A stretch of 64,000 nucleotides of DNA, taken from sequence record NZ_CP014527.1; one strand, 5' to 3'. Positions 3,190-58,588 of the stretch are shown one piece after another; position 1 is the first letter of the stretch, and every line of letters begins with the position of its first letter. This DNA comes from a plasmid. The notes under the pieces are model-generated. The model made no database searches. It was not told the origin of the DNA and saw only the letters and a program-made list of their open reading frames with translations. Position numbers and translations under genes: made by a program.

Positions 3190-3490
3190 CAATGACAACA
3201 CAATGGAATGTCAAAGCGCGTGAAACAGGGACCCATCTCGCAAGACGGGACAGGAGACATGTATAACCACGAACAGGGATGCAAACGAGTTTGGCGAGTG
3301 TTTATGCGCCAGTCTCAAAGAATCTCGAAGTTTCTCAGAGAATCTCCAAGAATCTCAAAGTTTCTACGTCGTACCCACCGGCAGGATAGAGGAGGTGGGC
3401 CCACCTCCTGTCCTCATTCGATGAGGATGCTTGTTCGCACGGTCCGGCCGTGCTCAACGCAAGCGTGAGAAAGAGGGAGCTTTTTAACCG
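3190..3490. repeat. ~300-bp noncoding repeat element, copy 1 (second copy 9060-9366)
   Basis: ~75% identity over the first half and ~95% over 3355-3490 vs 9231-9366. Contains an 11-bp-periodic direct repeat array (3301-3365). Contains a perfect 20-bp palindrome aggaggtgggcccacctcct (3390-3409). Contains a second hairpin gcacggccgggccgtgc. Confidence 0.7.
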
Positions 3491-5804: not shown

Positions 5805-6446
5805 ATGATAATAACGGTTGGTAATACAAAAGGTGGCGTGGGCAAAACTACGATATCGGTTAATTTGGCGGTCGCCCGCGCATTGTCCGGTCGCGATGTA
5901 TGGTTGATTGATGGTGACCGACAGGGTACGGCGCAAACTGCAATCAGTATCCGGGCTGAAGCGGGGTACGCTCCGGGGATTGCTTGTGCCACTTATCCGG
6001 ATGGCCCGACATTGCGGTCACAGGTTCAGCAACAGGCATCCAGATTTAATGATGTGATTATCGATGCTGGCGGACGTGACTCAACTGCATTGCGTGCTGC
6101 CCTTGTACTGTCTGATGTGCTTCTGGTTCCATTCCAGCCTCGGAGTTATGACGTGTGGGCACTCAACGATATTGCGGCACTGGTTGATGAGGCCAGAAGT
6201 GTGCGTGATGGTCTGCGGTGCTTTGCCGTTCTTAATTGCGCCGATCCGGGCGAGCATTCAACAGACAACATAGAAGCTGCCGCTGCGGTCGCTGAAGTTC
6301 CCCAATTTGAATACCTCCCAACTCCTTTGCGTCGTCGCAAAGCTTTTGCTAATGCCGCAGGTTCGGGGCAAAGCGTTCTTGAATTGAGGCCGCAGGATCA
6401 CAAGGCGACAGCCGAGGTAAATAACCTTATTAACGCATTGTTTTAA
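5805..6446 (+). CDS. parA: Plasmid partition ATPase ParA (Walker-type, type Ib)
   Basis: Deviant Walker A 'GNTKGGVGKTTISVNLA'. 213 aa, typical of small ParA/ParF-like proteins. Confidence 0.85.
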   Translation: MIITVGNTKGGVGKTTISVNLAVARALSGRDVWLIDGDRQGTAQTAISIRAEAGYAPGIACATYPDGPTLRSQVQQQASRFNDVIIDAGGRDSTALRAALVLSDVLLVPFQPRSYDVWALNDIAALVDEARSVRDGLRCFAVLNCADPGEHSTDNIEAAAAVAEVPQFEYLPTPLRRRKAFANAAGSGQSVLELRPQDHKATAEVNNLINALF

Positions 6447-9059: not shown

Positions 9060-9366
9060 ACAACATCATGAAATGTCAATGCAGGTATGGAGAGTAAAAG
9101 CCATGTAAAGGGGAAATAGACGGTATGTATAACTGCGAACAGTGGTGCAAATGAAATTGGCAAGTATCTAAGTGGTATTCTACGAGTTTCTACGAGTTTC
9201 CAAAAGTTTCTACGAGTTTCTACGAGTTTCCAAAAGTTTCTACGTCGTACCCACCGGCAGGATAGAGGAGGTGGGCCCACCTCCTGTCCTCATTCCATGA
9301 GGATGCTTATTCGCACGGCCGGGCCGTGCTCAACGCAAGCGTGAGAAAGGGGGAATTTTTTAACCG
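9060..9366. repeat. ~300-bp noncoding repeat element, copy 2 (see 3190-3490)
   Basis: 11-bp periodic array 'gtttctacgag'/'gtttccaaaag' x7 (9171-9245). Perfect palindrome aggaggtgggcccacctcct (9266-9285). Ends exactly at the Tn3-family repeat at 9366. Confidence 0.7.
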
Positions 9367-9403
9367 TTTCCGTCTCAGAAAACGGAAAATAAAGCACGCC
9401 AAG
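9366..9403 (+). repeat. Tn21-subgroup (Tn3-family) 38-bp terminal inverted repeat, IR-1 (outer 5 bp divergent)
   Basis: 'gtttccGTCTCAGAAAACGGAAAATAAAGCACGCcAAG' vs Tn21 IR GGGGTCGTCTCAGAAAACGGAAAATAAAGCACGCTAAG. Inner 33 bp match almost perfectly. Outer GGGGT replaced. Confidence 0.7.
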
Positions 9404-9569
9404 CCGACGTCGGTAACCACGGCGACGGTACCCGGAGACGACAGGGTTCGGGTTCGGGCGTGGGCTGAAAGGCAGGCTTCAACAGGTTTTGCGAAAAACA
9501 TGCTCACTTGGTTGCGTGGACATGATTTCTGCCTAAAAGGTCCGTCTCTGGATGCGGTTTTTCTTCCTG

Positions 9570-9597
9570 TGGAAAGGAAACTTTGCTATTCTTTCCA
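9570..9597 (+). promoter_or_regulatory. Palindromic putative operator upstream of the Xre-RES toxin-antitoxin operon
   Basis: tggaaag-N14-ctttcca inverted repeat 28 bp upstream of the antitoxin start. TA operons are typically autoregulated through such sites. Confidence 0.25.
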
Positions 9598-9624
9598 TAG
9601 GCAGACAAGAGAGGCCCTACCATC

Positions 9625-10008
9625 ATGACGCGGGCACCCAAGTCAGAAACACACCAGCCTGATGCAAGTGCTGTTCTGACCAAAGCTGTGATCCGGGCGG
9701 CGGATTATCTGGATATTCCGGCAACCGTGCTGGCAAGAATTCTGGGGCTCAGCGAGCCCACCATATCCCGCATGCGCAAGGGATCCTTTTTTCTTTCAAC
9801 AAAAAAGAAAGAATCCGAGATCGGCGTACTGTTTGTGCGTCTTTTCCGGTCTCTGGACGCGCTGGTCGGAGGAGACCAGGCCAGTGCACGGGCGTGGTTG
9901 ACCAATGTGAATACGGTCCTGCTGGATCGTCCGCTCAACCAGATACAAACCATAAACGGACTGTACAATGTCATTGCATACTTGGACGCCCGCCGCGCTG
10001 TCATCTGA
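9625..10008 (+). CDS. Xre-like HTH antitoxin of RES-Xre (ParS/MbcA-like, DUF2384-type) toxin-antitoxin pair
   Basis: 127 aa. 'AVLTKAVIRAADYLDIPATVLARILGLSEPTISRMRKG' HTH. Upstream of and overlapping a RES-domain gene. Confidence 0.75.
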   Translation: MTRAPKSETHQPDASAVLTKAVIRAADYLDIPATVLARILGLSEPTISRMRKGSFFLSTKKKESEIGVLFVRLFRSLDALVGGDQASARAWLTNVNTVLLDRPLNQIQTINGLYNVIAYLDARRAVI

Positions 10009-10744
10009 GTTCCGGTCTTTTACGGGGTTGTGCTGGCGTCTGGTGGAGTGCCAGCACTACGTTTCGACGCTGAAAATAGTCGACAGCCTTGAAGAGCAGC
10101 GCATTCTGGAAATGTTGGTAGAAGAAACAAAGCCACCGCTGCCCCCGGAATGTCAAAGCCTGCATTTCCTTCTGTCCACGCCTTTCCGGTATGACCCGGC
10201 GTATCCAAAGGGTTCCCGGTTCCGGCGGGCCGGACGCACGCCGGGTGTCTATTACGCCGCCATGGAGCCTGAAACCGCCGTTGCCGAGATCGCTTTCTAC
10301 CGGGTCCTGTTTTTTGCGGAATCCCCGGGTACACCATGGCCGGTCAACCCGGCTGAATACACCGCCTTTGCGGTCGACGTGGAAAGCCGAAGCGTTGTTG
10401 ACCTGACATCCCTGCCGTTGTCACAGGGGCGGGCGGTCTGGACGGACCCGGTGAACTACGAACCGTGTCAGGCGCTGGCAGAAACGGCCAAGCAGGCGGG
10501 GGCCGGGATGATCCGGTATGAATCGGTGCGTGACCCGCGTGGCCGGCATAATCTCGCCCTTATGACCTGTCAGGCGTTCAGGGGCGGACAACCGGCACAT
10601 TGCCAGACATGGCGGATCCTGCTCAGTCACGTCGGGGCCCAAGCTCTGTGTGAGTTTCCACAGGTGTATTTAGCTTTTGATCGGGATGAATTCTCGTCAG
10701 ACCCGCGCCTGAACGGGATGGACTGGAAACGGCCTTCCCGGTAA
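9968..10744 (+). CDS. RES-domain toxin (ParT/MbcT-like NAD+-targeting toxin); true start probably downstream of 9968
   Basis: Downstream partner of the Xre antitoxin. Conserved Arg/Glu/Ser-containing segments (e.g. 'RFRRAGRTPGVYYAAMEPETAVAEIAFYRV', 'IRYESVRD'). The 41-nt overlap with the antitoxin suggests an internal GTG/TTG start near 10030-10046. Confidence 0.7.
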   Translation: MSLHTWTPAALSSEFRSFTGLCWRLVECQHYVSTLKIVDSLEEQRILEMLVEETKPPLPPECQSLHFLLSTPFRYDPAYPKGSRFRRAGRTPGVYYAAMEPETAVAEIAFYRVLFFAESPGTPWPVNPAEYTAFAVDVESRSVVDLTSLPLSQGRAVWTDPVNYEPCQALAETAKQAGAGMIRYESVRDPRGRHNLALMTCQAFRGGQPAHCQTWRILLSHVGAQALCEFPQVYLAFDRDEFSSDPRLNGMDWKRPSR

Positions 10745-11194
10745 ACCAAAGAGAAACCCTAGATTGTGTTGGTGACCTACCACCCACGGCCCTTTCCCAG
10801 CACTTTTCCCATCGCGTCAACCACATTCATGCCCATCGGCCCGGTTGCGGCCTGTCCGGTGAGGTAGAGCCGCCAGTTCCTGGCCTGTGACGGAAGAAGC
10901 TGGTTCTGGCGGATGGCAAGGTAGCGACGCCAGCGATGATCGGACAGGAGGCCGCGTCCGGCCAGCGGACGCAGGCGATAACGACGGACGGGCTGGCCCG
11001 TCCGGATCTTGTTCCTGGCGATATGGGCAGGATCACGGTAGGAACCAAGGCGTTTCTCCAGCGCACCACGGCTGCACGTACGGTCAAGCGCACTGGCTTT
11101 CATGTGGGGTGGCTTGCTGGTGTCGGAATCAAGCGGACGGAACACCAGGCCACGGCCGCGCTGGACAAGAACAACGCCGAACCGGTCTGCCAGC

Positions 11195-11263
11195 CTCTGG
11201 CGCAGCCGCGTCAAGATCGGCACTGGCAAGTTCAGGCCGCTACGACCACTGAAACCGTCTTAG
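11195..11263 (+). pseudogene. tnpA: Tn21-like tnpA 3'-terminal relic (last ~22 codons)
   Basis: Translates to 'LWRSRVKIGTGKFRPLRPLKPS*', matching the TnpA C-terminus pattern ...LWRSSAKIGAGKFRPLRPLQPA*. Stop codon lies inside IR-2. Confidence 0.5.
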
Positions 11264-11296
11264 CGTGCTTTATTTTCCCTTTTCTGAGACGACCCC
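11259..11296 (-). repeat. Tn21-subgroup (Tn3-family) 38-bp terminal inverted repeat, IR-2
   Basis: Reverse complement ggggtcgtctcagaaaagggaaaataaagcacgctaag has 37/38 identity to the Tn21 IR. Inverted relative to IR-1, so IR-1/IR-2 bracket 1.93 kb carrying the RES-Xre pair. Confidence 0.85.
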
Positions 11297-11297
11297 T

Positions 11298-11386
11298 ATC
11301 AACCTGACCGGAGATTACCTGTGGCGCAGCAGCGCCAAGATCGGCGCAGGCAAATTCAGGCCACTACGACCGCTACAGCCGGCTTA
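11298..11386 (+). pseudogene. tnpA: Tn21-like tnpA 3'-terminal relic (last 29 codons)
   Basis: Translates to 'INLTGDYLWRSSAKIGAGKFRPLRPLQPA*', the C-terminal peptide of Tn21-subgroup TnpA (recalled from memory). Begins immediately outside IR-2. Stop codon TAG inside IR-3. Confidence 0.8.
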
Positions 11387-11420
11387 GCGTACGATTTTTT
11401 CCGTTTTCTGAGACGACCCC
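11383..11420 (-). repeat. Tn21-subgroup (Tn3-family) 38-bp terminal inverted repeat, IR-3 (IRtnp-type end)
   Basis: Reverse complement ggggtcgtctcagaaaacggaaaaaatcgtacgctaag. Preceded by the tnpA 3' relic exactly as at a Tn21 IRtnp end. Confidence 0.8.
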
Positions 11421-11547
11421 AAGTTGTCGCATTGTTCCGTTTTGTGGTTAAAAAACAATGCTTGGCGGGATAAACACACGAAACCCCGCTTGCAATTTAT
11501 CGGCGATGCCTCATAATGCTGCAGATTGCATTATTTCAGGGGCTAGA

Positions 11548-11742
11548 ATGACCGCCAAACACCGTATAACCATCAACATGACTGAGGCGGAATATACCGC
11601 CCTTGCGGCTCTGGCTGAACGGTTTCAAGTTTCAATGGCATGGCTTGGCCGCCGTGCTTTGGGTGAGATGGTAGAAAAATACAAACACGCAGGGCAACTC
11701 ACCATGCCCTTTGACGCAACACCGCCAAAGGAAAAATCATGA
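11548..11742 (+). CDS. Ribbon-helix-helix (CopG/Arc-like) DNA-binding protein, candidate controller of the downstream R-M operon
   Basis: 'MTAKHRITINMTEAEYTALAALAERFQVSMAWLGRRALGEMV' shows a beta-strand-helix-helix pattern. Stop codon overlaps the methyltransferase ATG (ATGA). Confidence 0.55.
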   Translation: MTAKHRITINMTEAEYTALAALAERFQVSMAWLGRRALGEMVEKYKHAGQLTMPFDATPPKEKS

Positions 11743-13382
11743 GAGCCAGCGCACTTGCCCCCGTTGTTCACCCACAATCAACCCGCCGGATAAATCTGCC
11801 GCTCAAAAAACCTACGCTTGAAACACCAACGCAGCTGGCCGACCGCATCGGCCAAAACTACACCAACCAAAAAAACGCCGAACACCGCAAAAGCCACGGG
11901 CTTTATTTAACCCCGCCGCCAGTGGCTGCCTTTATGGCAGATATGATCTGCCCCCGTGATACGCTACGCCTGCTTGATCCCGCCGCCGGTGCTGGCATTT
12001 TACTTTGCGCGGCCATCGAGCGGCTGGCCGCCTGCCCCAACCCGCCGCGTTTGGTTGAGATTGTCGCTTATGAAATTGATCCACCGTTAGCGGCCATGCT
12101 GGCCGAGGTTCTCGACCATCTAACCGCTTGGGCCGCTGGCAAGGGCATGACGATCAAAACCACAATCCGCTGCACTGATTTTATTTTGGCCGAGGCCGCC
12201 GCCCTGCATCATCGCCCCGCTAATCGCTTCGATGCCGTCATTGCTAACCCGCCTTATTTTAAGATCAACAAAGATGACCCCCGCGCCGTTGCGGCTTGTG
12301 ATGTTGTGCATGGTCAGCCCAATATCTATGGCCTGTTCATGGCTGTTGCCGCCGCGATGCTGAGTCAAGGCGGCGATCTGGTATTTATCACCCCGCGTAG
12401 CTTTGCATCAGGCCCTTATTTTAAGCGATTCCGCGAACGGTTTTTTTCAATGGTGCGACCGCTTAGAACTCATGTTTTTGCTTCCCGCCGCGATGCCTTT
12501 AGCCGCGATGCAGTGCTGCAAGAAAATGTTATCCTACATGCAATCCGCGCCGATGGATGGACAACCAAGCCCAACGGCCTGCCCTTCACAATTTCCAGCA
12601 GCACCGGCATGGGCGATCTTGACCAAGCCACCGAATACCCAGCCGCCTTAGCCGATGTAATCGACCCTAAAAATTTGGCTGGTGCTTTCCGTTTACCCTC
12701 AGGCCCCGAAGATGAAGACATTTTGCGCCGTGTGGACAGTTGGACAGGCTCACTTCATGCTTATGGGTTGGATATTTCCACCGGCCCCGTGGTGCCATTC
12801 CGCGCCACAGAACATCTAGCCGAGCAAGCTAATGGCGTAACCGTTCCCTTGTTGTGGTTAAACCATGTCAAGGCGATGGAGATTCAATGGCCGACCGCTA
12901 GCCGTAAACCGCAATACATTAAAAACAAAACCAATTCCCAACGCCTGCTTGTGCCAAACAGCACTTACATTCTGTTGCGCCGATTCAGTGCCAAGGAAGA
13001 GCACCGCCGCATGACCGCAGCCCCCTTGCTGGCCGGTCAGATTCCAGCCGCCATGATCGGTATTGAAAACCATCTAAACTATATTCACCGACCAGGCGGC
13101 AACATCAGCGATGATGAAGCCTTTGGCTTGGCCGCTTTGCTCAACAGCGCATTGATGGATGGGTATTTTCGTTGCACCAACGGCAATACCCAAGTCAGTG
13201 CCACCGAATTACGCGCCATGCCTTTGCCGCCCTTAGCCGCTATCGCCCAGCTTGGCCGCCGCGTCAGAAAAAAACCCGACAACATGGCTTTAATTGATGA
13301 TTTGGTTGAGGCGTTGACGCACAACCCCGATCAAATCAAGGTTAAAACGACCGAAAAACAAAAAGGAGAAGCCTTTGCCTGA
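11739..13382 (+). CDS. N6-adenine DNA methyltransferase, gamma-class (M.PstI/M.BsuBI / Eco57I-type family)
   Basis: AdoMet motif I 'LLDPAAGAGILLCAAIERL' precedes motif IV 'VIANPPYFKINKDD' (NPPY). 547 aa, close to M.PstI/M.BsuBI (~500 aa). Followed by a BsuBI/PstI-family REase gene. Confidence 0.85.
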   Translation: MRASALAPVVHPQSTRRINLPLKKPTLETPTQLADRIGQNYTNQKNAEHRKSHGLYLTPPPVAAFMADMICPRDTLRLLDPAAGAGILLCAAIERLAACPNPPRLVEIVAYEIDPPLAAMLAEVLDHLTAWAAGKGMTIKTTIRCTDFILAEAAALHHRPANRFDAVIANPPYFKINKDDPRAVAACDVVHGQPNIYGLFMAVAAAMLSQGGDLVFITPRSFASGPYFKRFRERFFSMVRPLRTHVFASRRDAFSRDAVLQENVILHAIRADGWTTKPNGLPFTISSSTGMGDLDQATEYPAALADVIDPKNLAGAFRLPSGPEDEDILRRVDSWTGSLHAYGLDISTGPVVPFRATEHLAEQANGVTVPLLWLNHVKAMEIQWPTASRKPQYIKNKTNSQRLLVPNSTYILLRRFSAKEEHRRMTAAPLLAGQIPAAMIGIENHLNYIHRPGGNISDDEAFGLAALLNSALMDGYFRCTNGNTQVSATELRAMPLPPLAAIAQLGRRVRKKPDNMALIDDLVEALTHNPDQIKVKTTEKQKGEAFA

Positions 13383-14316
13383 TATTCACCAAGCCCAAGA
13401 TATTCTAAAAAGTCTTGGCCTACCAGCCGCACAGCAGAATGAAATTTCCGCGCTAACCTTGCTGGCTCTTGTCGGGCTAGGCCCAACTGATCCTTGGTCA
13501 GCGGCTACCCGCAGCCGCCGCAGCGTATCAAAAGACATCATGGCTTTTATCGCCGAGCGTTTCGGTAAACACTATGCGCCCAACACCCGTGAAACCGTGC
13601 GGCGGCAAGTGTTGCATCAATTCGTGCAAGCCCGTATCGCCGATTATAACCCGTTCGAGCAGGACTTGCCGACCAATAGCCCCCGCGCTCATTACGCCAT
13701 CACCGATGATGCGTTGAGCGCAATTAAAACCTATGGCACAAAAGCATGGGCCGATGCCGTGGCACAATTCATTGCTACACACGGTTCACTTTCCAACACC
13801 TATGCAAAACACCGATCCACCGGAAAGCTGGTTCCAATCACTTTGCCGGACGGCAGCACCATTGAACTATCGCCCGGCAAGCATAATGACGTACAGAAAG
13901 CCATTATCGAGCAATTCGCGCCGCGTTTTGCGCCTGATTCCAAGCTGCTTTATATCGGCGACACCGCTAAAAAGAATGTCATAATGGATGCCAAAACCTT
14001 GGCCGATTTTGGCCTTGGTGCCGATGACCACGATAAATTGCCGGATGTGGTATTACTCGACCAAAAGAAGAATTGGTTGTTTCTAATTGAAGCGGTAACA
14101 TCACATGGCCCTATGTCACCCAAGCGCGTATTCGAGCTTGAGGAACGGTTAAAGGGCAGCCAAGCTGGGCCAGTTTATGTTAGCGCATTCCCAGATATGG
14201 CCGAGTTTCGTAAACACATGAAAGATATTGCTTGGGAAAGCGAAGTCTGGATTGCTGAAACACCGGATCACATGATCCATTTCAATGGCGATAGGTTTTT
14301 AGGGCCGAGAAAATAG
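13375..14316 (+). CDS. Type II restriction endonuclease, BsuBI/PstI family
   Basis: 313 aa, the size and position expected for R.PstI/R.BsuBI. TTG start 4 nt after a strong SD 'aaaaggagaa'. Overlaps the MTase stop. Family call rests on synteny plus overall similarity recalled from memory, not a computed alignment. Confidence 0.7.
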   Translation: MPDIHQAQDILKSLGLPAAQQNEISALTLLALVGLGPTDPWSAATRSRRSVSKDIMAFIAERFGKHYAPNTRETVRRQVLHQFVQARIADYNPFEQDLPTNSPRAHYAITDDALSAIKTYGTKAWADAVAQFIATHGSLSNTYAKHRSTGKLVPITLPDGSTIELSPGKHNDVQKAIIEQFAPRFAPDSKLLYIGDTAKKNVIMDAKTLADFGLGADDHDKLPDVVLLDQKKNWLFLIEAVTSHGPMSPKRVFELEERLKGSQAGPVYVSAFPDMAEFRKHMKDIAWESEVWIAETPDHMIHFNGDRFLGPRK

Positions 14317-14349
14317 GCACCGACTATCAAAACGCGGAGAGGCTATATC

Positions 14350-15051
14350 ATGGCAAGATGTACAGCACCAGTATATGGCCACCGCACATCGAGCGGGGCA
14401 GCTGCCTGCCCCGCATGTAATGGACGCTATAGAAGCTATACCTCACACTCATATTCACCGCCGCCGCCTTACTTCACCACCACAACAGTGAGCAATTGGG
14501 GTGGCCGAAGCAGCGGAAGTAGTTCTGGCAGCAGCGGAAAGGTTCGCTGGTCTCGGCCAGGTTCGTCCGTGATGTACACGCCTGCCCAGATACGGACGCT
14601 CACGCCTGTCCGTGAAAACATCGAAAACAAAACGTCCGTTCTCGATCTTCGGGACGTTTTTCTTTGCCATGCGTGGGACGACAGGAAAGGGGCTGCCAAG
14701 GAACTGCATGATCTGCTCCAGTCGCTCGGGGTATCGGTCTGGTTCAGCGAGAAGGATGTAGCCCTCGGCACTTCGTTGCTCCGCGAAATCGACAAAGGAT
14801 TGGTGAAGTCCCGAGTCGGGATCGTACTAGTGACCCCAGCACTGTTGCGTCGCATTCAAGGAGAGGGAATCGCCGACAAAGAGCTTTCGGCACTACTAGC
14901 GCGTGACCTGCTTGTTCCTGTTGTGCATGAAACCACGTATGACGCCCTCCGAGAAGTTAGCCCACTGCTCGGTTCGCGAAGCGGCCTGAGCACCGCAGAA
15001 GAGCCGATGGCAGACATTGCGGCCAAGCTCGCTGAACTAGTCGCCCCCTAG
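14350..15051 (+). CDS. TIR-domain protein (bacterial Toll/interleukin-1 receptor-like, putative NADase effector) with N-terminal Cys-x2-Cys and Ser/Gly-rich linker
   Basis: TIR core 'DVFLCHAWDDRKGAAKELHDLLQSLGVSVWFSEKDVALGTSLLREIDKGLVKSRVGIVLVTPALL' with the conserved catalytic Glu context (WFSE). SD 'GGAGAGG' 7 nt upstream. Starts 33 bp after the REase stop. Confidence 0.8.
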   Translation: MARCTAPVYGHRTSSGAAACPACNGRYRSYTSHSYSPPPPYFTTTTVSNWGGRSSGSSSGSSGKVRWSRPGSSVMYTPAQIRTLTPVRENIENKTSVLDLRDVFLCHAWDDRKGAAKELHDLLQSLGVSVWFSEKDVALGTSLLREIDKGLVKSRVGIVLVTPALLRRIQGEGIADKELSALLARDLLVPVVHETTYDALREVSPLLGSRSGLSTAEEPMADIAAKLAELVAP

Positions 15052-16377: not shown

Positions 16378-17421
16378 TTACGGCCGGCCCTGCTTCTCAT
16401 AGCGCCGCCGGCAGAAGGCGAGGAAGGCCGCATTCGGATCACGCAACGGCGGTCGGCCGGAGTCATCCCAGAACGACAGCCATTCGCTCTTCAGGTGATA
16501 CACATCCCAGCCAGGCGCGGCCAAGCGCGCATCGTGATACACATCGTCATCGAGCTGAGGAATGTCACGGGAGGACAGGGCTTCAATCGCCTTAATCGTC
16601 GCGCGGTTAGTGAACAGGATCATATCGCCGTCTTCCAGGCTCACTGTGTAATCCGGCAGATGGTTTGTCCGCGCCAAATCCTTCAGCAGATAGCGAAACT
16701 GCTTCAGCAAGCTCTTGGAGCCTGTTTTCTTGTGCAAAAGCTCGATGCTGATCGACCAGCTCGGCTGGCGACCGCAATGCTTGCGGGCGATCTCATAGAT
16801 GCGCCGTTCAAGCGGTTTGCGCAGCCGGAAATAATCCCGATGCAGCGTCAGGCATTCATTCTGATTGACCGCATTGAAGACCCAATCTGATAGGGTGATC
16901 TCACACCAGAGCAATCTACCATCGAGGCCGAATTTACGCGCGACCGAGGCGGAATCAATCAAGCCGAAGGCGCTGAATTGCTCTTCATCGCCTCGCTTGA
17001 TATTTGTGCGAATGCGCGTCCCATCGAGGCGATCAAGGGCTTCACACATCGCCTCATAATCCTTTCCGGACGTGCCGCGATTGGTGAACATCAGCAATTC
17101 GCGCGCGGTGATCCGCACCCGCTTGGAAATGGCTTCGCCCTTGTTCTTTTTCGCAATAAGCTGCGAAATGCAATAGATCAAAATATCCTTGTCATAGATG
17201 GTTGCCAGGCCTTTAACGCTTGGCACAATCTCGATCCAGTTGCCGTTATGCTCATAGCGCCTGACCGTGGTTTCAGGCTTCTTGGACAGAGAATAGAATG
17301 GGTGTTCCATCTGCGCGACCAAATCCTTCAGAACGGCGTCGGCAATATCGCAGATGAACAAGTCTCCTTGCGGATACCTGTCGGGAAGAAGGCTATCAAG
17401 ATTAGTGGTATCAGAGATCAT
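16378..17421 (-). CDS. repA: Plasmid replication initiator RepA (RPA-type 'replication initiator protein A' family)
   Basis: 347 aa. Start codon abuts an iteron array. Family assignment recalled from plasmids of alphaproteobacteria, not computed. Confidence 0.7.
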   Translation of the reverse strand: MISDTTNLDSLLPDRYPQGDLFICDIADAVLKDLVAQMEHPFYSLSKKPETTVRRYEHNGNWIEIVPSVKGLATIYDKDILIYCISQLIAKKNKGEAISKRVRITARELLMFTNRGTSGKDYEAMCEALDRLDGTRIRTNIKRGDEEQFSAFGLIDSASVARKFGLDGRLLWCEITLSDWVFNAVNQNECLTLHRDYFRLRKPLERRIYEIARKHCGRQPSWSISIELLHKKTGSKSLLKQFRYLLKDLARTNHLPDYTVSLEDGDMILFTNRATIKAIEALSSRDIPQLDDDVYHDARLAAPGWDVYHLKSEWLSFWDDSGRPPLRDPNAAFLAFCRRRYEKQGRP

Positions 17422-20390: not shown

Positions 20391-20492
20391 ACAACCGGCC
20401 ACGACGACACGCGGCTTCCGCGCTCTCAAAAACCACGCTTGAAACCGTGTCGGTTCTTGGTGATGTTTGCGATGAGTTTTGAGGGAGCTTCC

Positions 20493-20669
20493 ATGCTGAT
20501 CGGCTATGCCCGCGTTTCGACGCGAGACCAGACCACAGAGCTACAGACAGAGGCGTTATTGGCAGCCGGCAAGCTTCTGGAGACTGGCACGCCCGCCCGC
20601 ACCGTCGCCGAGAGTCTGGGCGTGTCACCCGCTACACTGTACCGCTGGCTGCCTGCCCAGACGGATTAG
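20493..20669 (+). pseudogene. tnpR: Internally deleted resolvase (tnpR) remnant
   Basis: 'MLIGYARVSTRDQTTELQTEA' (catalytic N-terminus) joined directly to an HTH 'TVAESLGVSPATLYRWL'. Only 59 aa versus ~185 for an intact resolvase. Ends at Tn3-family IR-4. Confidence 0.55.
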
Positions 20670-20702
20670 CGTGTCTTATTTTCCGTTTTCTGAGACGACC
20701 TC
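20665..20702 (-). repeat. Tn21-subgroup (Tn3-family) terminal inverted repeat, IR-4 (outer GAGG instead of GGGG)
   Basis: Reverse complement gaggtcgtctcagaaaacggaaaataagacacgctaat has ~33/38 identity to the Tn21 IR. Same orientation as IR-2/IR-3. Confidence 0.7.
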
Positions 20703-20706
20703 TTCA

Positions 20707-21054
20707 GGCCCGTGGCATGCAATTCCGTGCCTTGGTTGACCGCATTGGCGCCGGAAGTCCCGCAGGCAAGGCGGGTACGGTCAGGCGACGCAACCGCTTC
20801 ATCAGGTTGGCTTTGTTCTGACGTGCCTGTGCCAGATCGTAAGCCGCCTGCAAGCGCAGCCACAGGTCCGCCTTCACACCTATCACCGCCTCAAGCCGCA
20901 GTGCCATTTCGGGGGATATGGCGCTCTGTTGGTTAAGGACGCGGTACAGTTGTTGACGGCTTATGCCAAGCGCTTCTGCGGCTTGTGCCGTTGTTAGGTT
21001 CAACGCTTCAAGATCATCTTTGAGACCTTCAGCGGGGTGGGGTGGGTTGTGCAT
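20707..21054 (-). CDS. higA: HigA antitoxin (Xre-family HTH)
   Basis: 'AEGLKDDLEALNLTTAQAAEALGISRQQLYRVLNQQSAISPEMALRLEAVIGVKADLWLRLQAAYDL' matches HigA. Start taken at internal Met (MHNPP). C-terminus runs into IR-4. Confidence 0.8.
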
Positions 21055-22409: not shown

Positions 22410-22463
22410 CGGGCTTTAACAGTTCTCTTGAAATCTATCTAAATGTGTGTATATCTATTTGTT

Positions 22464-23087
22464 ATGGATAGATATGTTTCCGTTGGCCGTGCGGCGGCCC
22501 TTCTTGGTGTCTCGGTCAGCACGCTCCGTCGCTGGGAGCGGGAAGGCAAGCTTTTGCCGGAGCGGACGGCATCCGGCCACCGCCGTTATGCCCTGTCCCG
22601 GCTTCAATCCGGTCACGACGGCGAGGCAGCGGCGCAGAAGCGTACCATTGCCTATGCGCGTGTTTCCAGTCATGACCAGAAAGCGGACCTTGAACGCCAG
22701 AAAAAGATACTGGAACTATACTGTGCCCGGCAAGGCTGGACCCATGAGGTTATAGCCGACCTTGGGTCCGGAATGAATTACCGCAAGAAAGGTCTCAAAC
22801 GTCTTCTGGAAGATATCATGGCGGGCCGGGTCGGACGCCTTGTCCTGACGCACAAGGACCGTCTTCTCCGCTTTGGTGCCGAGCTTGTGTTTGCGCTTTG
22901 TGAGGCCAGACAGGTGGAGGTTGTGATCCTCAACCAGGGTGAGGACACCACCTTCGAGGAAGATCTGGCGAAAGATGTCCTTGAGATCATCACCGTGTTC
23001 AGCGCCCGTCTGTATGGGGCACGGTCCCGGAAGAACCAGAGACTTCTGGAGGCTGTTGCAGAGGCGGTCAAGGATTCCCCGGCATGA
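22464..23087 (+). CDS. tnpA: IS607-family transposase TnpA (MerR-HTH serine recombinase)
   Basis: Identical to 24..647. Confidence 0.85.
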   Translation: MDRYVSVGRAAALLGVSVSTLRRWEREGKLLPERTASGHRRYALSRLQSGHDGEAAAQKRTIAYARVSSHDQKADLERQKKILELYCARQGWTHEVIADLGSGMNYRKKGLKRLLEDIMAGRVGRLVLTHKDRLLRFGAELVFALCEARQVEVVILNQGEDTTFEEDLAKDVLEIITVFSARLYGARSRKNQRLLEAVAEAVKDSPA

Positions 23088-24286
23088 TAACAGCCCATCG
23101 TATCGCGCTTGATCCCAACAATGTGCAGGCCACATATCTGGCCCGCGCTGCCGGGACAGCCCGCTTTGCCTATAACTGGGCCCTGGCGGAGTGGGGGCGG
23201 CAGTATGCGGCATGGAAAGAGGACAACACCCTGCCAAAGCCCTCGCAGTACGCCCTGCGCAAGCAGCTCAATGCCGTCAAGCGGGAGCAGTTTCCGTGGA
23301 TGCTGGAGGTTACGAAGAATGCCCCCCAGATGGCCATCATCCAGCTTGGAGAGGCCTTCAGGAACTTCTTCGCGGGCCGTGCCCGTTATCCGAAGTTCCG
23401 CAAGAAAGGTGTACACGACCGCTTCACCCTGACCAACGACCAGTTCACTATCGACGGTTCACACATCCGCATCCCCCATCTGGGCCGGGTGCGGATGCGC
23501 GAGGCGTTGCGCTTTACCGGCAAGATCATGTCAGCCACCGTGTCCCGTGTGGCCGACCGCTGGTTTGTCAGTCTTGCCGTGGAGACACCCGAGGAGCCAT
23601 GCCTGCCCCACGCTGAAAACCAAGGTGCGGTGGGTGTGGATCTCGGTGTCTCCGCACTGGCAACGCTCTCGACCGGGGACAGCCTTCCGGGACCCAAACC
23701 GCACAAGGCCGCGCTGAACCGTCTGCGCCGTTTGTCCCGGAGCCTGTCCCGGAAACAGAAAGGCTCCTCCAACCGCCGCAAGGCCCGGCAGAAGCTGGCC
23801 CGTCTTCACGCCCGGATCAGCAACATCCGCACCGATGCCCTGCACAAGCTCACCACAGCACTGGTCCGCAGATTTCACCTCATCGGCATCGAAGACCTGA
23901 ATGTACGCGGCATGATGCGCAACCGGCATCTGGCCCGCGCCATTGCCGACATGAGCTTTCATGCTTTCAGGCGGCAACTGGAATACAAGATGGCACGGCG
24001 CGGGGGACGGGTTGTGGTTGCCGACAGGTGGTTTGCCAGCAGCAAGACCTGTTCGTGCTGTGGGCACAAACTCGAAAGCCTGCCTTTGGCAACACGGGCA
24101 TGGGTGTGTCCCGTGTGCCGTACGCAGCATGATCGTGACGTGAATGCCGCGATCAACCTGAGACATCTGGCGGTGAGCTCCACCGTGTCAGCCTGTGGAG
24201 AGGAAAGCTCTGGCTTGGGTCGCAAGACCAAAGCGAAACTGGCCTCAGGGAAGCAGGAAGCAAGCAGCAGGTTTACTCATATATGA
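23084..24286 (+). CDS. tnpB: TnpB (IS605/IS607 OrfB)
   Basis: Identical to 644..1846. Confidence 0.85.
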   Translation: MITAHRIALDPNNVQATYLARAAGTARFAYNWALAEWGRQYAAWKEDNTLPKPSQYALRKQLNAVKREQFPWMLEVTKNAPQMAIIQLGEAFRNFFAGRARYPKFRKKGVHDRFTLTNDQFTIDGSHIRIPHLGRVRMREALRFTGKIMSATVSRVADRWFVSLAVETPEEPCLPHAENQGAVGVDLGVSALATLSTGDSLPGPKPHKAALNRLRRLSRSLSRKQKGSSNRRKARQKLARLHARISNIRTDALHKLTTALVRRFHLIGIEDLNVRGMMRNRHLARAIADMSFHAFRRQLEYKMARRGGRVVVADRWFASSKTCSCCGHKLESLPLATRAWVCPVCRTQHDRDVNAAINLRHLAVSSTVSACGEESSGLGRKTKAKLASGKQEASSRFTHI

Positions 24287-24702
24287 GTAGGTTTGCATAG
24301 GTATTGTAGAGCGGTGAATACAGTAACAACATTCGCCCCATACGCACAGGAAGATCCTACAGCCATGAAGGCTGCAAAAACAAATCTTGCCCTGAACACA
24401 CACGCCCCCTTTGTGTCTTATTTTCAGCATCAGACGGGCCGCTCACACCGTGGCTACCCACCACCCCCGAGCAGCACTCTAGGGTAGATATGTCTGAAAT
24501 GAAACACTTAATAGGGGAATTTTGCTCGGCAAGAATACGAAAATAGATGCACAAGAATGATACGAACAGCGATTGCTCTCACAAAAAATAAGTAGCTACC
24601 CCGCAAAATATAGACTGTGTTTTGGCCAGCTACCGGACAGCAAAAAGGCGCCCCCATCCCTCCTAGATATAGAGGGTGGGGGCACAAAACTTGGAGAGAC
24701 TG

Positions 24703-52169: not shown

Positions 52170-52858
52170 GTAAAAAGGGTCCGGGAACCAGAAGTATCCT
52201 GAGCCGAAGATGCAACCAGTGTTGGCAGCTCCATACTGCCAACAAGGGACTGGTCGTGACTGACCAGAACCAGAGCCGATCCGGATGCTTTCACCAATTC
52301 CAGCAACAGGGCCATGACATCAGCAGAACGGGCCGGATCAAGCGCCGCCGTTGGCTCGTCAGCGAGCACAAGATCCGGGCGATACAAAAGGGCGCGGGCC
52401 ACGGCCACCCGTTGGCGCTCGCCAATGGACAGAGCCGAGGGCATCAGGGATACAAGGGGGCGCAAACCAAGCACATCAAGAAGATAGTCTTCCCATGCGG
52501 GGTCAAAGACAGTTAGCTCTCGCGCGGAAAGCCGTATGTTGGCCAAAACATCCACGAAAGGCAGCAATCCCCCGGTCTGGAGAATGTAACCAAGATGTTC
52601 GGCCCTGACCCGGGCCAAAACATCCTTCCGCCGCGACGCCCACAAAGCTGGAATATCAACACCCCGGACCTGAAAGATGCCTGCCGATCCCGGTTGCAGA
52701 ACCAAGCCAAGAATATCCAGCAAAGTGCTTTTGCCACAGCCACTGGGCCCCGTCACAATCATGGCCTGCCCGGAAGACAAGGTCAGGGACGGAAGGAAGA
52801 AACGGAACCCCCCGCGAGACCCTTCTAAGGACCGGATATCCAGAACACACGTGTTCAC
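52148..52858 (-). CDS. ABC transporter ATP-binding protein (LolD/MacB-like)
   Basis: Walker A 'GPSGCGKSTLLD', signature 'LSIGERQRVAVARAL', Walker B 'LVLADEPTAALD'. Confidence 0.9.
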   Translation of the reverse strand: MNTCVLDIRSLEGSRGGFRFFLPSLTLSSGQAMIVTGPSGCGKSTLLDILGLVLQPGSAGIFQVRGVDIPALWASRRKDVLARVRAEHLGYILQTGGLLPFVDVLANIRLSARELTVFDPAWEDYLLDVLGLRPLVSLMPSALSIGERQRVAVARALLYRPDLVLADEPTAALDPARSADVMALLLELVKASGSALVLVSHDQSLVGSMELPTLVASSAQDTSGSRTLFTWKGAPP

Positions 52859-54852
52859 GGCATGGCATCCAGAGGAACCGGGTACACCGCCTCTCCGGGA
52901 TCAAGACCGCCATCTAGGGAAACCCAGCGGCTGACATCATCATTATACACCTGGTACAGGCGCAGTTTGCGTTCTATCTCGTCAAGGAAAGCCTGCTGCT
53001 GGCTGATACTCCAGCTGGACCATGTCTGCTGGTCAAGGTCCAGAACCTTGGATCGATAAGGCAGGTCGTCCAGATATTCTCCAAGCAAACCCAAATCCGC
53101 CAACCGACGGGCTTGGTCACGTTTGACAATGTTAGGATCACGACCCAGCGTCGCCGCAACAGACCGCAGTTGGGCAAAGAAATCGCCCGGTGACAGTTGT
53201 GCCGCCTGCCCTGCCGTACTGATTGTCTGCAACACCTGCTGCAAATCCGAAAGCTGGTTCCGGGTCAGCAGAACGCGAACTTCAGTTGTTGGTATCTCAG
53301 GATGCTCAAGGTCACGGTCGGCAATCCATGCCGAAAAGAGAGGCGGAGCCTGTGTTCCCTCCTTACGACCAAGCCAGGCCAGCTGCATGGCATGCCCCAA
53401 CATGGCCGCGTCCTGACGAACACGCGACAGGCTGCCTCCTGATTGCACATAGCCGGGATCTGCTGTCCGGGCAGCACCCGGAACCGACTCACCGCGCCGG
53501 GCAGCACCAACCTGCTCAACAATCGCATCGCCCAAAGCATCCACCATTGACCCAAAAACATCCACAGCCCCTGATTCAACAGGATAATACAGTGGACGCT
53601 GCAAAAGGGGATGACGGGTCAGATCCTTGTACTGGGCCTCTGCTTCAGCATGATTAGCTTTTCCGGCCGGAGTTCTCAGGTGGAGGGCATAAACGGCAAG
53701 CCCACGGTGCTGGGCCTCAAGACGAACCTGGGCCGCATCCAGTCGAGTTGACGACAGGGGATCCTGACCCCGCAAGGCACCAGCATCGGTGATAAGGATC
53801 ACATACCGCCCACCGAAAGAAGACCATTGGATACGCTCCACTGCCGTCATGATGCCAGCATAGGCATCTTCGGAGAAACGCGCAGAAGACACAGTTGCCG
53901 CCTTCAGGTCAGCAACACGATCCAAGAATTCTTTACCGCTGCGCACCTCGGAAGGATCGGCAAACACCTTGGACACATAGTCCAGCTCAGGGGTGCGATC
54001 AACATTGGAACGAAAGGCAATCATGCCGAACCGTACCTGATCCAGAAGCCCCGCCTTCTCGATATGACCGTAAATCCGCCGCACTGCTTCACGGGTACGG
54101 TCGATGTAGGGCCCCATTGACACTGTGGAATCAATCACAAACACAACAGCCGCCGTAAAGTTCCGCAACGCACTGACCCCACCGGAAGAAGGGGTTGGTG
54201 CAGCAACAGCTTTGCCCTCATCACGACTAACGGAAGCAATTTCCAGCATCCGGACACGGTGCCCATGGCCGCTGAAGGTTTCCTCCGCCTGAAGGATGGG
54301 AAGAAGGTAAAAATGGCTGGCAAGATCAACGTAGTTTTCAGGCTCTACAGACACGACATGGGGATCATGCCCACCTGCCAGAACAGCCTTGCGCAAGGGA
54401 TCGATGCGCAGAGCCGGTTGGTCGGCTTCAACAACGGAGGCAAGGCTGTTCCTATCCCGGAACAACAACGCACGCTCGCGTCCGGACGGATTGGTGAAGG
54501 CCAATGTCAGCTGCTGCTTCCAAGGCAATGTAAATCCAGCCTCAACCCAACCATCAACATCGCCGTTTGCTGTCAGGCCAACCTCAAGCCAAGGGACAGC
54601 CCCTATTATCTTGCGGTCATAAACATAGAAACGGGTCAGGGCTGGCTGCTGCATACCCGGTCCATCACCCGGACTGCGCTTGAGGACAGCACCCGGACGT
54701 GTCAGCACCCTTTCATAAAGGGTTGCCTTACCCGGCATGATCAGGGGAGAGCGTGCGTATACGGTAGGTGCCTGACCAATGCACAGTATCACGGCAAAGG
54801 ACACCAGCATGCGAGCTAGCGCGCGATAAATGGCAACTTTGGCCCGCACCAT
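52855..54852 (-). CDS. Secreted von Willebrand factor A (vWA) domain protein
   Basis: Start taken at internal Met with signal peptide 'MVRAKVAIYRALARMLVSFAVILCIGQAPTVYA'. MIDAS 'VVFVIDSTVSMG' ... 'ILITDAG'. Confidence 0.75.
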   Translation of the reverse strand: MVRAKVAIYRALARMLVSFAVILCIGQAPTVYARSPLIMPGKATLYERVLTRPGAVLKRSPGDGPGMQQPALTRFYVYDRKIIGAVPWLEVGLTANGDVDGWVEAGFTLPWKQQLTLAFTNPSGRERALLFRDRNSLASVVEADQPALRIDPLRKAVLAGGHDPHVVSVEPENYVDLASHFYLLPILQAEETFSGHGHRVRMLEIASVSRDEGKAVAAPTPSSGGVSALRNFTAAVVFVIDSTVSMGPYIDRTREAVRRIYGHIEKAGLLDQVRFGMIAFRSNVDRTPELDYVSKVFADPSEVRSGKEFLDRVADLKAATVSSARFSEDAYAGIMTAVERIQWSSFGGRYVILITDAGALRGQDPLSSTRLDAAQVRLEAQHRGLAVYALHLRTPAGKANHAEAEAQYKDLTRHPLLQRPLYYPVESGAVDVFGSMVDALGDAIVEQVGAARRGESVPGAARTADPGYVQSGGSLSRVRQDAAMLGHAMQLAWLGRKEGTQAPPLFSAWIADRDLEHPEIPTTEVRVLLTRNQLSDLQQVLQTISTAGQAAQLSPGDFFAQLRSVAATLGRDPNIVKRDQARRLADLGLLGEYLDDLPYRSKVLDLDQQTWSSWSISQQQAFLDEIERKLRLYQVYNDDVSRWVSLDGGLDPGEAVYPVPLDAMP

Positions 54853-54853
54853 C

Positions 54854-55888
54854 CTACTCTCCCAGATCACGCAGAACAGACTTCGCCACGTCATCACCGG
54901 AGGCTGCAGCCTTGCGCAACCATTCCAAGCCCTTTGTGCGACCATAACCATTCGGATCAAGAGCAAGAAGAATCTGGCCCAGCCTTCTTTGGGCTTCTGC
55001 ATGACCGGACAGCGCAGCCGGCTCGTACCAATAAGCTGCTGTTTCCGCATCCGGCTTTTCAATCGGGCTAGAACTTGGATGATACGTTTCGGGATCATAA
55101 AACCGCCCCAAGGCCAGAGATGCACCGGGGTGCCCTGACCGTGCAGCATACCGGTAGGCCAACATAGCCAGATCAGCCTTTTCACGGCGCATCAGATCAT
55201 CAGCCAAAGCAACCGTTGCATCCGAAGAAGGTGAGCTACCAAGAAATGCAGCCAGATCCTCGCGCGTTTTTACGTCTTCTGGTGCTGCACGGTATTCTCC
55301 ATCCTGTACAGGCGGAGGAACAAAGGGATCAGACGGGGCATGAGAACCATTCCAGTACCAGAAACCACCAACCACAACACACAAGGCCAGAACAAGAATG
55401 GCGGGAAGCGGGAACTTTGCCCGAGAAGAACCCAAACCGGAAACCGGTGTCGATTCTTCGACAGGATCAGGCAGAACAACCGGCTCCACCACGATCGGTT
55501 CAGGTAATGGCTCCGCATGCGGAGCCGGAGCATCCGCAACAGCAGCATGTGATGGATACAGACCTGTCACGCCCTGCACACCACGGACCATAATCCCGGA
55601 GTTTTCGACCGTCAGCTGAATACGGGCATTTGGCGGCAAGACAGCAAGACAATCCGTAATAAGCGGACCAAGAAAGGCTCTTCCGGTGTTGTCAAAATGC
55701 ACATCGTGCCAGCACTGCTCGGCCTGCCAACCCCCACCGGAGTTCAGAAAATCCTGCCCTTGGTTACGCAGGATCTGCACACGCCCATTTCCTGCGGGAA
55801 TCCCGGACACCTTGAGAACAGAATACCCTGGCCCACGCTCAATATCAGGGACAAGTTCAGCTTTTGACACCATAAACAACGGTTCCAT
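54854..55888 (-). CDS. Membrane-anchored Sel1-like repeat protein
   Basis: TM helix 'LPAILVLALCVVVGGFWYW'. C-terminal Sel1/TPR-like repeats 'AYRYAARSGHPGASLALGRFY', 'AAYWYEPAALSGHAEAQRRLGQIL'. Confidence 0.6.
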   Translation of the reverse strand: MEPLFMVSKAELVPDIERGPGYSVLKVSGIPAGNGRVQILRNQGQDFLNSGGGWQAEQCWHDVHFDNTGRAFLGPLITDCLAVLPPNARIQLTVENSGIMVRGVQGVTGLYPSHAAVADAPAPHAEPLPEPIVVEPVVLPDPVEESTPVSGLGSSRAKFPLPAILVLALCVVVGGFWYWNGSHAPSDPFVPPPVQDGEYRAAPEDVKTREDLAAFLGSSPSSDATVALADDLMRREKADLAMLAYRYAARSGHPGASLALGRFYDPETYHPSSSPIEKPDAETAAYWYEPAALSGHAEAQRRLGQILLALDPNGYGRTKGLEWLRKAAASGDDVAKSVLRDLGE

Positions 55889-55891
55889 CTA

Positions 55892-58576: not shown

Positions 58577-58588
58577 CGTCTGCCTCCA

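Follow-up and report, generated by a model that had tools for sequence, protein, structure and literature searches.

Positions 9366-11420 of the 64,000-nt window analysed here (the whole stretch taken from plasmid record NZ_CP014527.1) are probably occupied by a decayed, immobile Tn21-type scar of an ordinary kind and not by a working mobile cassette. At least three transposons of the Tn21 subgroup (Tn3 family) have likely left scars of their ends in this patch of a Haematospirillum jordaniae-type plasmid, around a toxin-antitoxin (TA) pair of the RES-Xre class. The initial annotation had described the same segment as a transposase-less Tn21-type element carrying this pair, either decayed or mobilisable in trans.

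Four copies of a Tn21-type terminal repeat are present in the window, 38-bp comparisons being scored against the Tn21 IRtnp sequence taken from plasmid R100. IR-2 (11259-11296, minus strand, outer tip to the right) and IR-3 (11383-11420, minus strand) are intact and match this reference at 37/38 and 34/38 positions, respectively, the former exactly as had been claimed and the latter close to the earlier estimate of ~33/38; a Tn3-family transposon of K. oxytoca pKOX100_2 ends in a repeat identical to IR-3 (38/38). IR-1 (9366-9403, plus strand, interior to the right) matches at 33/38 positions, with four of the five mismatches clustered within the outer 5 bp (Fisher p = 3e-4), where GTTTC stands in place of the GGGGT of Tn21. 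The replacement of this outer GGGGT had been noticed in the initial annotation, together with a perfect inner 33 bp which turned out to match Tn21 at 32/33. The real homology of IR-1 spans 9371-9406, and a distant search of PLSDB aligned 36 bp of it at 97% identity with thousands of Tn21/TnAs3 ends. Two of the PLSDB sequences (H60 and H61) seemed to match a little beyond the outer side of IR-1 as well, but these additional matches are chance T-runs. By chance, 0.00 matches to the 38-mer are expected, and the 17-bp core of the repeat was found five times against 0.12 expected, four of the five being IR-1 to IR-4. IR-1 and IR-2 constitute an inverted pair (36 nt at 92% identity, 1849 nt apart). 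Judged by their sequence, IR-1, IR-2 and IR-3 are genuine terminal inverted repeats of the Tn21 subgroup.

The fourth repeat, IR-4 (20665-20702, minus strand, 34/38 to Tn21, tip GAGGT), was missed by the initial annotation and lies outside the interval. It closes a scar (20439-20702) in which an internally deleted resolvase gene precedes the repeat and has its stop codon within it, the intact resolvase-plus-repeat form being present in H. jordaniae H5569 and Haematospirillum sp. H1815. This scar is of the same family as those of the interval, though not part of it.

In the Tn3 family the terminal GGGG is needed for cleavage and strand transfer. The only repeat oriented oppositely to IR-2 and IR-3 is IR-1, which starts with GTTTC, so that a pair of ends starting with GGGG is lacking. 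The IS1111-family elements IS4321 and IS5075 target Tn21 repeats, and an insertion of this type is proposed here only as a candidate cause of the loss of the IR-1 tip.

Two remnants of tnpA accompany the right-hand repeats. The shorter, tnpA relic 2 (11194-11263, plus strand; peptide 11195-11263), retains the last 22 codons and the stop of a Tn21-subgroup transposase; it corresponds to TnpA residues 967-988 at 17/22 positions (tblastn) and its DNA is 91-92% identical to tnpA 3' ends of the ISPa38/TnAs3 type, the match beginning at 11194, as expected from the proposal of a shorter relic running into IR-2. In tnpA relic 3 (11297-11387, plus strand) the last 29 codons and the stop of a second Tn21-subgroup transposase are preserved. 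Its peptide INLTGDYLWRSSAKIGAGKFRPLRPLQPA, ending at the stop codon (11298-11387), had been taken for the C-terminus of Tn21-subgroup TnpA proteins with the stop inside the repeat, and the alignment supported this in full: it is identical at 29/29 residues to the TnpA C-termini of Tn21/R100 and of pKOX100_2, the region shows 95.2% DNA identity over 124 bp and the stop codon falls inside IR-3. About 65-70 bp (relic 2) and 91 bp (relic 3) of tnpA remain, and when a 988-aa TnpA was compared with the 64 kb by tblastn, residues 960-988 and 967-988 were the sole parts that aligned.

The terminal base of IR-2 directly abuts tnpA sequence at 11296/11297; the tnpA stop lies 91 bp and the transposon tip 124 bp from this point. 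Because the IR-2 tip abuts tnpA exactly, one transposon end did land inside the tnpA of another; the insertion of one transposon into the end of another had been recognized before, at a distance of 94 bp that agrees with neither of these values.

The interior of the interval contains more than the TA pair. A relaxase pseudogene (10777-~11193, minus strand) is joined directly to tnpA relic 2 at 11193/11194; it is 5'-truncated and keeps a TraI-like middle domain (Pfam TraI_middle; 29.6 bits, cut-off 27.6) and the C-terminal part, without the MobA/VirD2 nuclease domain. The stump aligns to residues ~213-350 of proteins of 370-1130 aa (HMMER, 1.84 billion representatives), and these proteins bear Relaxase and TraI_middle domains, while tblastn against PLSDB and a word-indexed protein search returned only the query's own protein. 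It had been stated that the 1.9 kb between IR-1 and IR-2 encode only an Xre antitoxin and a RES toxin; both are confirmed by Pfam, but the truncated relaxase gene also lies inside and its fusion to the tnpA stump is at odds with a TA-only element. The interval is a mosaic left by deletions and not a clean TA cassette. No transposase, resolvase ORF or res site was detected in 9366-11420; in short-word BLAST the leader of the TA pair shared only chance 7-8-mers with the res/tnpR upstream region of Tn21 and with the sequences that precede the three recombinase genes of the window, a comparison at BLAST level without a res motif model.

The xre antitoxin gene (9625-10008, plus strand, 127 aa) and the RES toxin gene (9968-10744, plus strand, 258 aa) are intact, xre lying upstream of res with a 41-bp overlap. 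The antitoxin contains the Xre-like-HTH (PF20432, 2e-13) and Xre_MbcA_ParS_C (PF09722, 2.5e-10) domains, both above cut-off, and aligns with PDB 8QNL chain A (E = 1e-15); the toxin contains the RES domain (PF08808, 5.7e-32, 111 bits), aligns with 8QNL chain C (E = 1.7e-34) and keeps the GSRF, ETA.AE and Y.S.R motifs. In the arrangement that characterizes the RES-Xre class, the gene of an HTH antitoxin with a toxin-binding domain at its C-terminus precedes and overlaps that of a RES toxin with Arg/Glu/Ser motifs; this layout is shared with MbcTA and with 8QNL, the nearest system of solved structure. In contrast to these, the closest relatives outside Haematospirillum are ~60% identical (Rhizobium) and occur in non-transposon contexts, and activity of the present pair is predicted. 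The 221-bp leader between IR-1 and xre (9404-9624, plus strand) resembled neither the Tn21 res region nor any PLSDB sequence and gave no match to a consensus sigma-70 promoter. An inverted repeat, GGAAAG...CTTTCC, can be seen by eye in this leader and is a candidate operator.

MbcT, a toxin of the RES-Xre class, is described as an NAD+ phosphorylase neutralised by its antitoxin (PMC6436930). Most likely, the Xre-RES pair is an autonomous module for plasmid addiction or defence, in which RES would deplete NAD+ and Xre would bind and neutralise it, leading to post-segregational killing and/or defence on the plasmid. Such a role may account for the survival of this segment through the deletions.

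On the left, IR-1 adjoins a plasmid module (9125-9366) with 10-bp periodic repeats and palindromes, which has a paralogue at 3259-3490 (81% over 242 bp by self-BLAST). The last ~120 bp of the left flank homology are ~95% identical and end with '...TTAACCG' at 9366, where the outer tip of IR-1 would be expected; IR-1 lies within 0-4 bp of the synteny breakpoint. On the right, the downstream RM-TIR module recurs at 99.7% identity beside another left neighbour in contigs L041 and L042, which come from samples SRR33541872 and SRR16940115; homology breaks at 11420/11421, and '...GAATGTGAC AAGTT GTCGCATTG...' runs uninterrupted there, without IR-3. The outer tip of IR-3 can thus be read as a true transposon-target junction, an empty-site-like comparison that applies to the outer flank of IR-3 and not to the interval. 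The 5-bp target duplications that had been suggested as a check were searched for and none was found: the flanks are TAACC (IR-1), TATCA (IR-2), AAGTT (IR-3) and TTCAG (IR-4), of which no pair matches, and the expected junctions of a target duplication with GGGG occur nowhere in the 64-kb window.

An identical RES protein is encoded on 11 public contigs, and the arrangement is the same in every recovered contig carrying the TA pair (Haematospirillum assemblies and public sequencing runs, one genus). When genomes and metagenomes were scanned with the RES protein, 24 further RES-Xre loci came up, and the Tn21 repeat core was absent from all of them. The distant search of PLSDB for an intact parent transposon yielded only repeat matches and TA matches of ~67%, and look-ups of the left-neighbour proteins for an empty site of the IR-1 left flank showed only the same context where contigs were long enough and their DNA available. 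Tiny orphan fragments occur elsewhere on such plasmids, for example a 144-bp RES 3' piece in strain H1815.

A first transposon, with IR-3 as its right end, inserted directly upstream of a PstI-like restriction-modification operon, and the right end of a second one (IR-2) then landed in the tnpA of the first, 124 bp from its tip. Since then every transposition gene has been lost, leaving only the tnpA stumps; inward of IR-2, tnpA codon -22 is joined to a relaxase gene midway along its length, and IR-1, in the opposite orientation, sits 1.85 kb leftward at another synteny breakpoint with its tip destroyed. The order and number of the deletions are a reconstruction. We infer that the IR-1 to IR-2 interval is incapable of transposing because it has no GGGG tip at IR-1, no target duplications and no second genomic context. 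Some Tn3-family transposases accept imperfect ends, and such tolerance, or one-ended transposition in some members of the family, may keep zero mobility short of proof.

Two observations run counter to the scar reading: the interiors of IR-1 and IR-2 face inward like the two ends of one transposon, and similarity to Tn21 ends stops at the inner edge of IR-1, where cargo would begin, as for a cargo-side repeat. They favour a history whose chances come close to even, in which IR-1 and IR-2 are the ends of a single ancestral Tn21-subgroup transposon whose cargo, beside the left repeat, was xre-res together with the relaxase fragment; res-tnpR and most of tnpA would then have disappeared in an internal deletion, and the IR-1 tip in a second event. 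The synteny breakpoint at IR-1, like that of a real transposon end, and the existence of non-autonomous Tn3-derived elements of 0.26-3.9 kb with assorted modules (PMC4133298) point the same way. However, the flanks of IR-1 and IR-2 (TAACC and TATCA) differ, the left flank of IR-1 is a plasmid repeat module and not the tnpA that IR-2 entered, and the 3 bp on the inner side of IR-1 (CCG) match the tnpA-side flank of Tn21 ends, which hints at a worn-down tnpA-side repeat. Moreover, a relaxase stump would be an odd cargo, the 24 other RES-Xre loci are without a Tn21-type repeat, RES-Xre is missing from the catalogue of Tn3-family TAs, which adjoin res (PMC7157771), and these plasmids carry other orphan fragments such as the RES piece of H1815. 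That the TA pair is instead plasmid backbone beside a worn-down solo repeat is roughly an even call, and the view of xre-res as Tn21-subgroup cargo placed by a terminal repeat rather than by res can be held only tentatively, with doubt somewhat the stronger. The rule that TA modules of Tn3-family transposons are embedded beside res within the tnpR/tnpA module (Lima-Mendez et al., 2020, PMC7157771) had been invoked for this locus, which does share with those cases the physical association of a type II TA with Tn3-family sequence. It departs from them in its RES toxin, a type not catalogued there, in its position 221 bp from a terminal repeat and in having no res, tnpR or tnpA adjoining.

With transposons of the Tn21, TnAs3 and ISPa38 type the locus shares the repeats (33-38/38), the tnpA 3' ends (91-95% DNA), the identical 29-aa C-terminus and the stop within the repeat; it differs in having no transposase, resolvase or res, only stumps of 22 and 29 codons, one lost tip and no target duplications. 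The paired GGGG ends, the ~990-aa DDE TnpA, the resolvase with res and the 5-bp duplication of an autonomous member are all missing. A 1.9-kb transposase-less segment with a functional module between inverted 38-bp Tn3-family repeats also recalls the TIME, TIME-COMP and TIME-RES elements of 0.26-3.9 kb (Szuplewska et al., 2014, PMC4133298) and mobile insertion cassettes (MICs). In TIME elements, however, both repeats are intact, 5-6-bp direct repeats are present and movement was captured (PMC4133298), whereas here the enclosing inverted repeats come with a destroyed left tip, no direct repeats, a deletion mosaic as interior and, in the one genus sampled, no signs of mobility (copies, contexts or an empty site). 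That the interval is a TIME- or MIC-like element still mobilisable in trans by a Tn21-type transposase, as the initial annotation had allowed, is highly improbable: IR-2 and IR-3 are intact and transposase-less Tn3-derived elements were moved in trans experimentally in Pseudomonas (PMC4133298), but IR-1 is without GGGGT, no repeat pairing gives direct repeats, no transposase is encoded within the 64 kb and all copies share one genomic context. It is unlikely, too, that the junctions arose by transposase-mediated fusion of segments, with solo IR-2 and IR-3 as substrates of one-ended transposition or replicon fusion, and not by insertion followed by deletion. [quoted passage not shown]

The significance of the scarred locus is mostly practical. 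It shows that a repeat-flanked TA pair may resemble a mobile cassette without being one. H. jordaniae is an emerging human pathogen of the alphaproteobacteria. If xre-res were indeed transposon cargo, RES-Xre would be the sixth toxin family tied to Tn3-family transposons, a modest widening of the list, in a position unlike all catalogued cases and in an alphaproteobacterial human pathogen. As it stands, the locus shows H. jordaniae plasmids assembled from modules joined at Tn21-type ends, and, should a Tn21-type transposase enter the cell, IR-2 and IR-3, as intact solo repeats, could yet be substrates for rearrangement.

The interval between the 38-bp terminal inverted repeats IR-1 and IR-2 (9366-11296), which holds a RES-Xre toxin-antitoxin (TA) pair, is not a functional mobile unit, and the evidence robustly identifies the region as a dead scar field derived from at least three Tn21-subgroup transposon ends, or four if IR-4 is included. 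Scored against the IRtnp of Tn21 from plasmid R100 (GGGGTCGTCTCAGAAAACGGAAAATAAAGCACGCTAAG), the three Tn21-type copies of the initial annotation were confirmed, with 33/38 matching positions in IR-1 (9366-9403, plus strand), 37/38 in IR-2 (11259-11296, minus strand) and 34/38 in IR-3 (11383-11420, minus strand); a fourth, IR-4 (20665-20702, minus strand, 34/38, tip GAGGT), had been overlooked. IR-3 agrees at 38/38 positions with the terminal repeat found in a Tn3-family transposon of Klebsiella oxytoca pKOX100_2. By chance, 0.00 matches are expected for the 38-mer and 0.12 for a 17-bp core, which was found five times (four of these in IR-1 to IR-4).

Stumps of tnpA 3' ends precede IR-2 and IR-3, and no further TnpA fragments were found across the 64-kb window. 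The relic ahead of IR-3 (11298-11384, plus strand, 29 codons) translates into INLTGDYLWRSSAKIGAGKFRPLRPLQPA, previously taken for a Tn21-subgroup TnpA C-terminus and now found to be identical to those of Tn21 and pKOX100_2, with the stop codon inside the repeat; together with IR-3 it shows 95.2% DNA identity to the K. oxytoca tnpA end. The relic ahead of IR-2 (11194-11263, plus strand) corresponds to TnpA residues 967-988 (17/22) and shares 91-92% identity with tnpA ends of the ISPa38/TnAs3 type, the homology beginning exactly at 11194. Identity between the relic-plus-repeat units of IR-2 and IR-3 is no more than 83%, so they originated in two different transposons and not by recent duplication.

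The terminal base of IR-2 (11296) abuts exactly the tnpA sequence TATCAACCTGACC..., 124 bp from the tip of the recipient transposon, which is the product expected when the end of one transposon inserts in the tnpA of another, as had been proposed. Two public contigs (L041 and L042) contain the module downstream of IR-3 with 99.7% identity, next to other sequence on its left; in them, homology stops between 11420 and 11421, at the IR-3 tip, and the sequence reads '...GAATGTGAC AAGTT GTCGCATTG...' without interruption, evidencing that IR-3 is a true transposon-target junction. The insertion split an imperfect palindrome in the middle, ahead of the RHH gene of a restriction-modification (RM) operon (AAAAGAACGGAATGTGAC AAGTT GTCGCATTGTTCCGTTTT in L042, 895-975); only its right arm is retained in the window (11421-11446), so that the RM operon may be regulated differently.

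At IR-1, the 242 bp to the left (9125-9366) are paralogous to 3259-3490, and this homology runs out at 9366, the expected site of the tip, while Tn21-type similarity starts only at 9371, the intervening TTTC belonging to neither. Of the five mismatches to Tn21, four are concentrated in the outermost 5 bp (Fisher p = 3e-4), indicating that the tip was clipped or replaced and did not mutate slowly. The 4-bp filler is complementary to GAAA within the repeat and could derive from templated repair; the replaced tip forms a small hairpin (9364-9385: CCGTTTC, CGTCTCAG and a GAAAACGG stretch). A repeat copy in the Haematospirillum jordaniae H5569 plasmid (L002 6647-6684) also has a non-canonical tip, AGCGG followed by CGTCTCAG, and, like IR-1, diverges from Tn21 between positions 5 and 6; an IS1111-family element targeting the repeats would be one candidate reason for this shared boundary.

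The interval had been described as encoding the TA pair only; it also contains a truncated relaxase gene, within a minus-strand ORF (10777-11229) assigned to Pfam TraI_middle above cut-off. In an exhaustive HMMER search this ORF aligned with residues ~213-350 of proteins of 370-1130 aa in which TraI_middle comes after a MobA/VirD2 relaxase domain, indicating a relaxase gene from which the initial ~210 codons are missing. As it breaks off where the tnpA relic ahead of IR-2 begins (about 11194), both stumps must have been joined by an illegitimate deletion. In this reconstruction, the scar field formed by nested insertion first and deletions afterwards.

The initial annotation, accurate in its sequence observations and supported only in part in its interpretation, considered the interval decayed or mobilisable in trans. 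Mobilisability in trans is contradicted by the pentamers flanking the four repeats (TAACC, TATCA, AAGTT and TTCAG), no two of which match in any pairing as 5-bp target-site duplications would, by the lack in the 64-kb window of any junction that the lost left ends should have formed, and by the single arrangement in every public contig with this TA; it is most improbable that it persists today. No resolvase or res-like sequence was found in the interval. Among described kinds, the interval comes closest to common remnants of Tn21-subgroup transposons and to the non-autonomous Tn3-derived elements reported by Szuplewska et al. (PMC4133298). Such elements possess intact repeats and 5-6-bp direct repeats and were observed to transpose, defining features that the interval does not share. 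The scar field holds nothing that a specialist would find surprising.

Whether the TA pair was once cargo of a Tn21-type transposon is a separate question, for which we consider a positive answer plausible but slightly the less probable one. IR-1 coincides with a breakpoint in synteny, its interior faces the TA, and Tn21 similarity does not extend past its inner edge, as would be the case for a repeat on the cargo side; however, the trinucleotide just inside IR-1 (CCG) agrees with the flank on the tnpA side of Tn21 ends, the flank of IR-1 is unlike that of IR-2, a relaxase stump is odd cargo, and other tiny orphan fragments occur in these plasmids, such as a 144-bp RES 3' piece with a repA 5' piece in Haematospirillum sp. 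H1815. The locus also differs from the Tn3-family TA catalogue (PMC7157771), where the RES-Xre family is absent and TA modules lie next to res instead of beside a terminal repeat. Among 24 RES-Xre loci from Rhizobium, other genomes and metagenomes, the nearest relatives beyond Haematospirillum (~60% identical), no Tn21-type repeat was present in the flanks retrieved. The window itself is plasmid-type Haematospirillum DNA. Contigs of GCA_012102795.1, GCA_012102835.1 and several Logan runs encode RES and Xre proteins identical to those found here; the neighbouring ORF shares 99% identity with a protein assigned by NCBI to H. jordaniae, and parts of the window are 87-98% identical to the H5569 plasmid. 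The H1815 fragments form an 87-aa chimeric ORF (L019 5250-5513) whose N-terminus resembles that of the RepA encoded at 16378-17421 and which ends in the last ~50 RES codons (90% DNA identity to 10589-10732).

Other features were detected in the surroundings. IR-4 and the resolvase gene that precedes it occupy 20439-20702; the gene has an internal deletion of ~370 bp and its stop codon within the repeat. The resolvase-plus-repeat unit is found intact in the H5569 plasmid (L002 6100-6684) and in H1815 (L019 3407-3996). Directly outside IR-4 (20702-20767), part of another resolvase gene follows, which translates into QARGMQFRALVDRIGAGSPAGKA and has 79% identity to the inner portion of the H1815 resolvase, indicating that this end, too, inserted into a recombinase gene or became joined to one. 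The 242-bp module, 81% identical to its copy 5.9 kb upstream, includes about seven 10-bp-periodic repeats (9168-9257; TTTCTACGAG / TTTCCAAAAG) and a perfect 20-bp palindrome (9266-9285; AGGAGGTGGGCCCACCTCCT), and has the appearance of iterons or of a centromere site close to parA (5805-6446). A defence cluster immediately to the right of IR-3 (11548-15051) encodes a small RHH-like regulator, an Eco57I/N6-type methylase (547 aa), a BsuBI/PstI-family (PstI-like) endonuclease (313 aa) and a TIR-domain protein (233 aa), and recurs in other contexts as the 99.7% identical module of L041 and L042. Two direct, 100% identical copies of a 1875-bp IS607-type element (1-1875, possibly cut by the window edge, and 22441-24315), encoding a MerR-fused serine recombinase and a TnpB/OrfB_IS605 protein, bracket ~20.6 kb with the whole locus, a RepA gene and several defence genes, and may constitute a composite unit. 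A large minus-strand cluster (52855-61597) with Pfam SrfB (1002 aa) and a 'putative bacterial virulence factor' (894 aa), resembling srfABC-type operons, is unrelated to the scar or the TA.

Both TA genes are intact on the plus strand, with clear Pfam assignments and matches to chains of PDB 8QNL: Xre (9625-10008, E = 1e-15) and RES (9968-10744, E = 1.7e-34, RES motifs conserved). The operon has its own 221-bp upstream leader, where an inverted repeat spotted by eye is a putative operator. In RES-Xre systems described elsewhere, the toxin depletes NAD+ and is neutralised by its antitoxin (PMC6436930). By analogy, the RES toxin encoded here probably depletes NAD+, with Xre neutralising it, and the operon probably works autonomously like other RES-Xre systems, which on a plasmid would mean addiction or defence.
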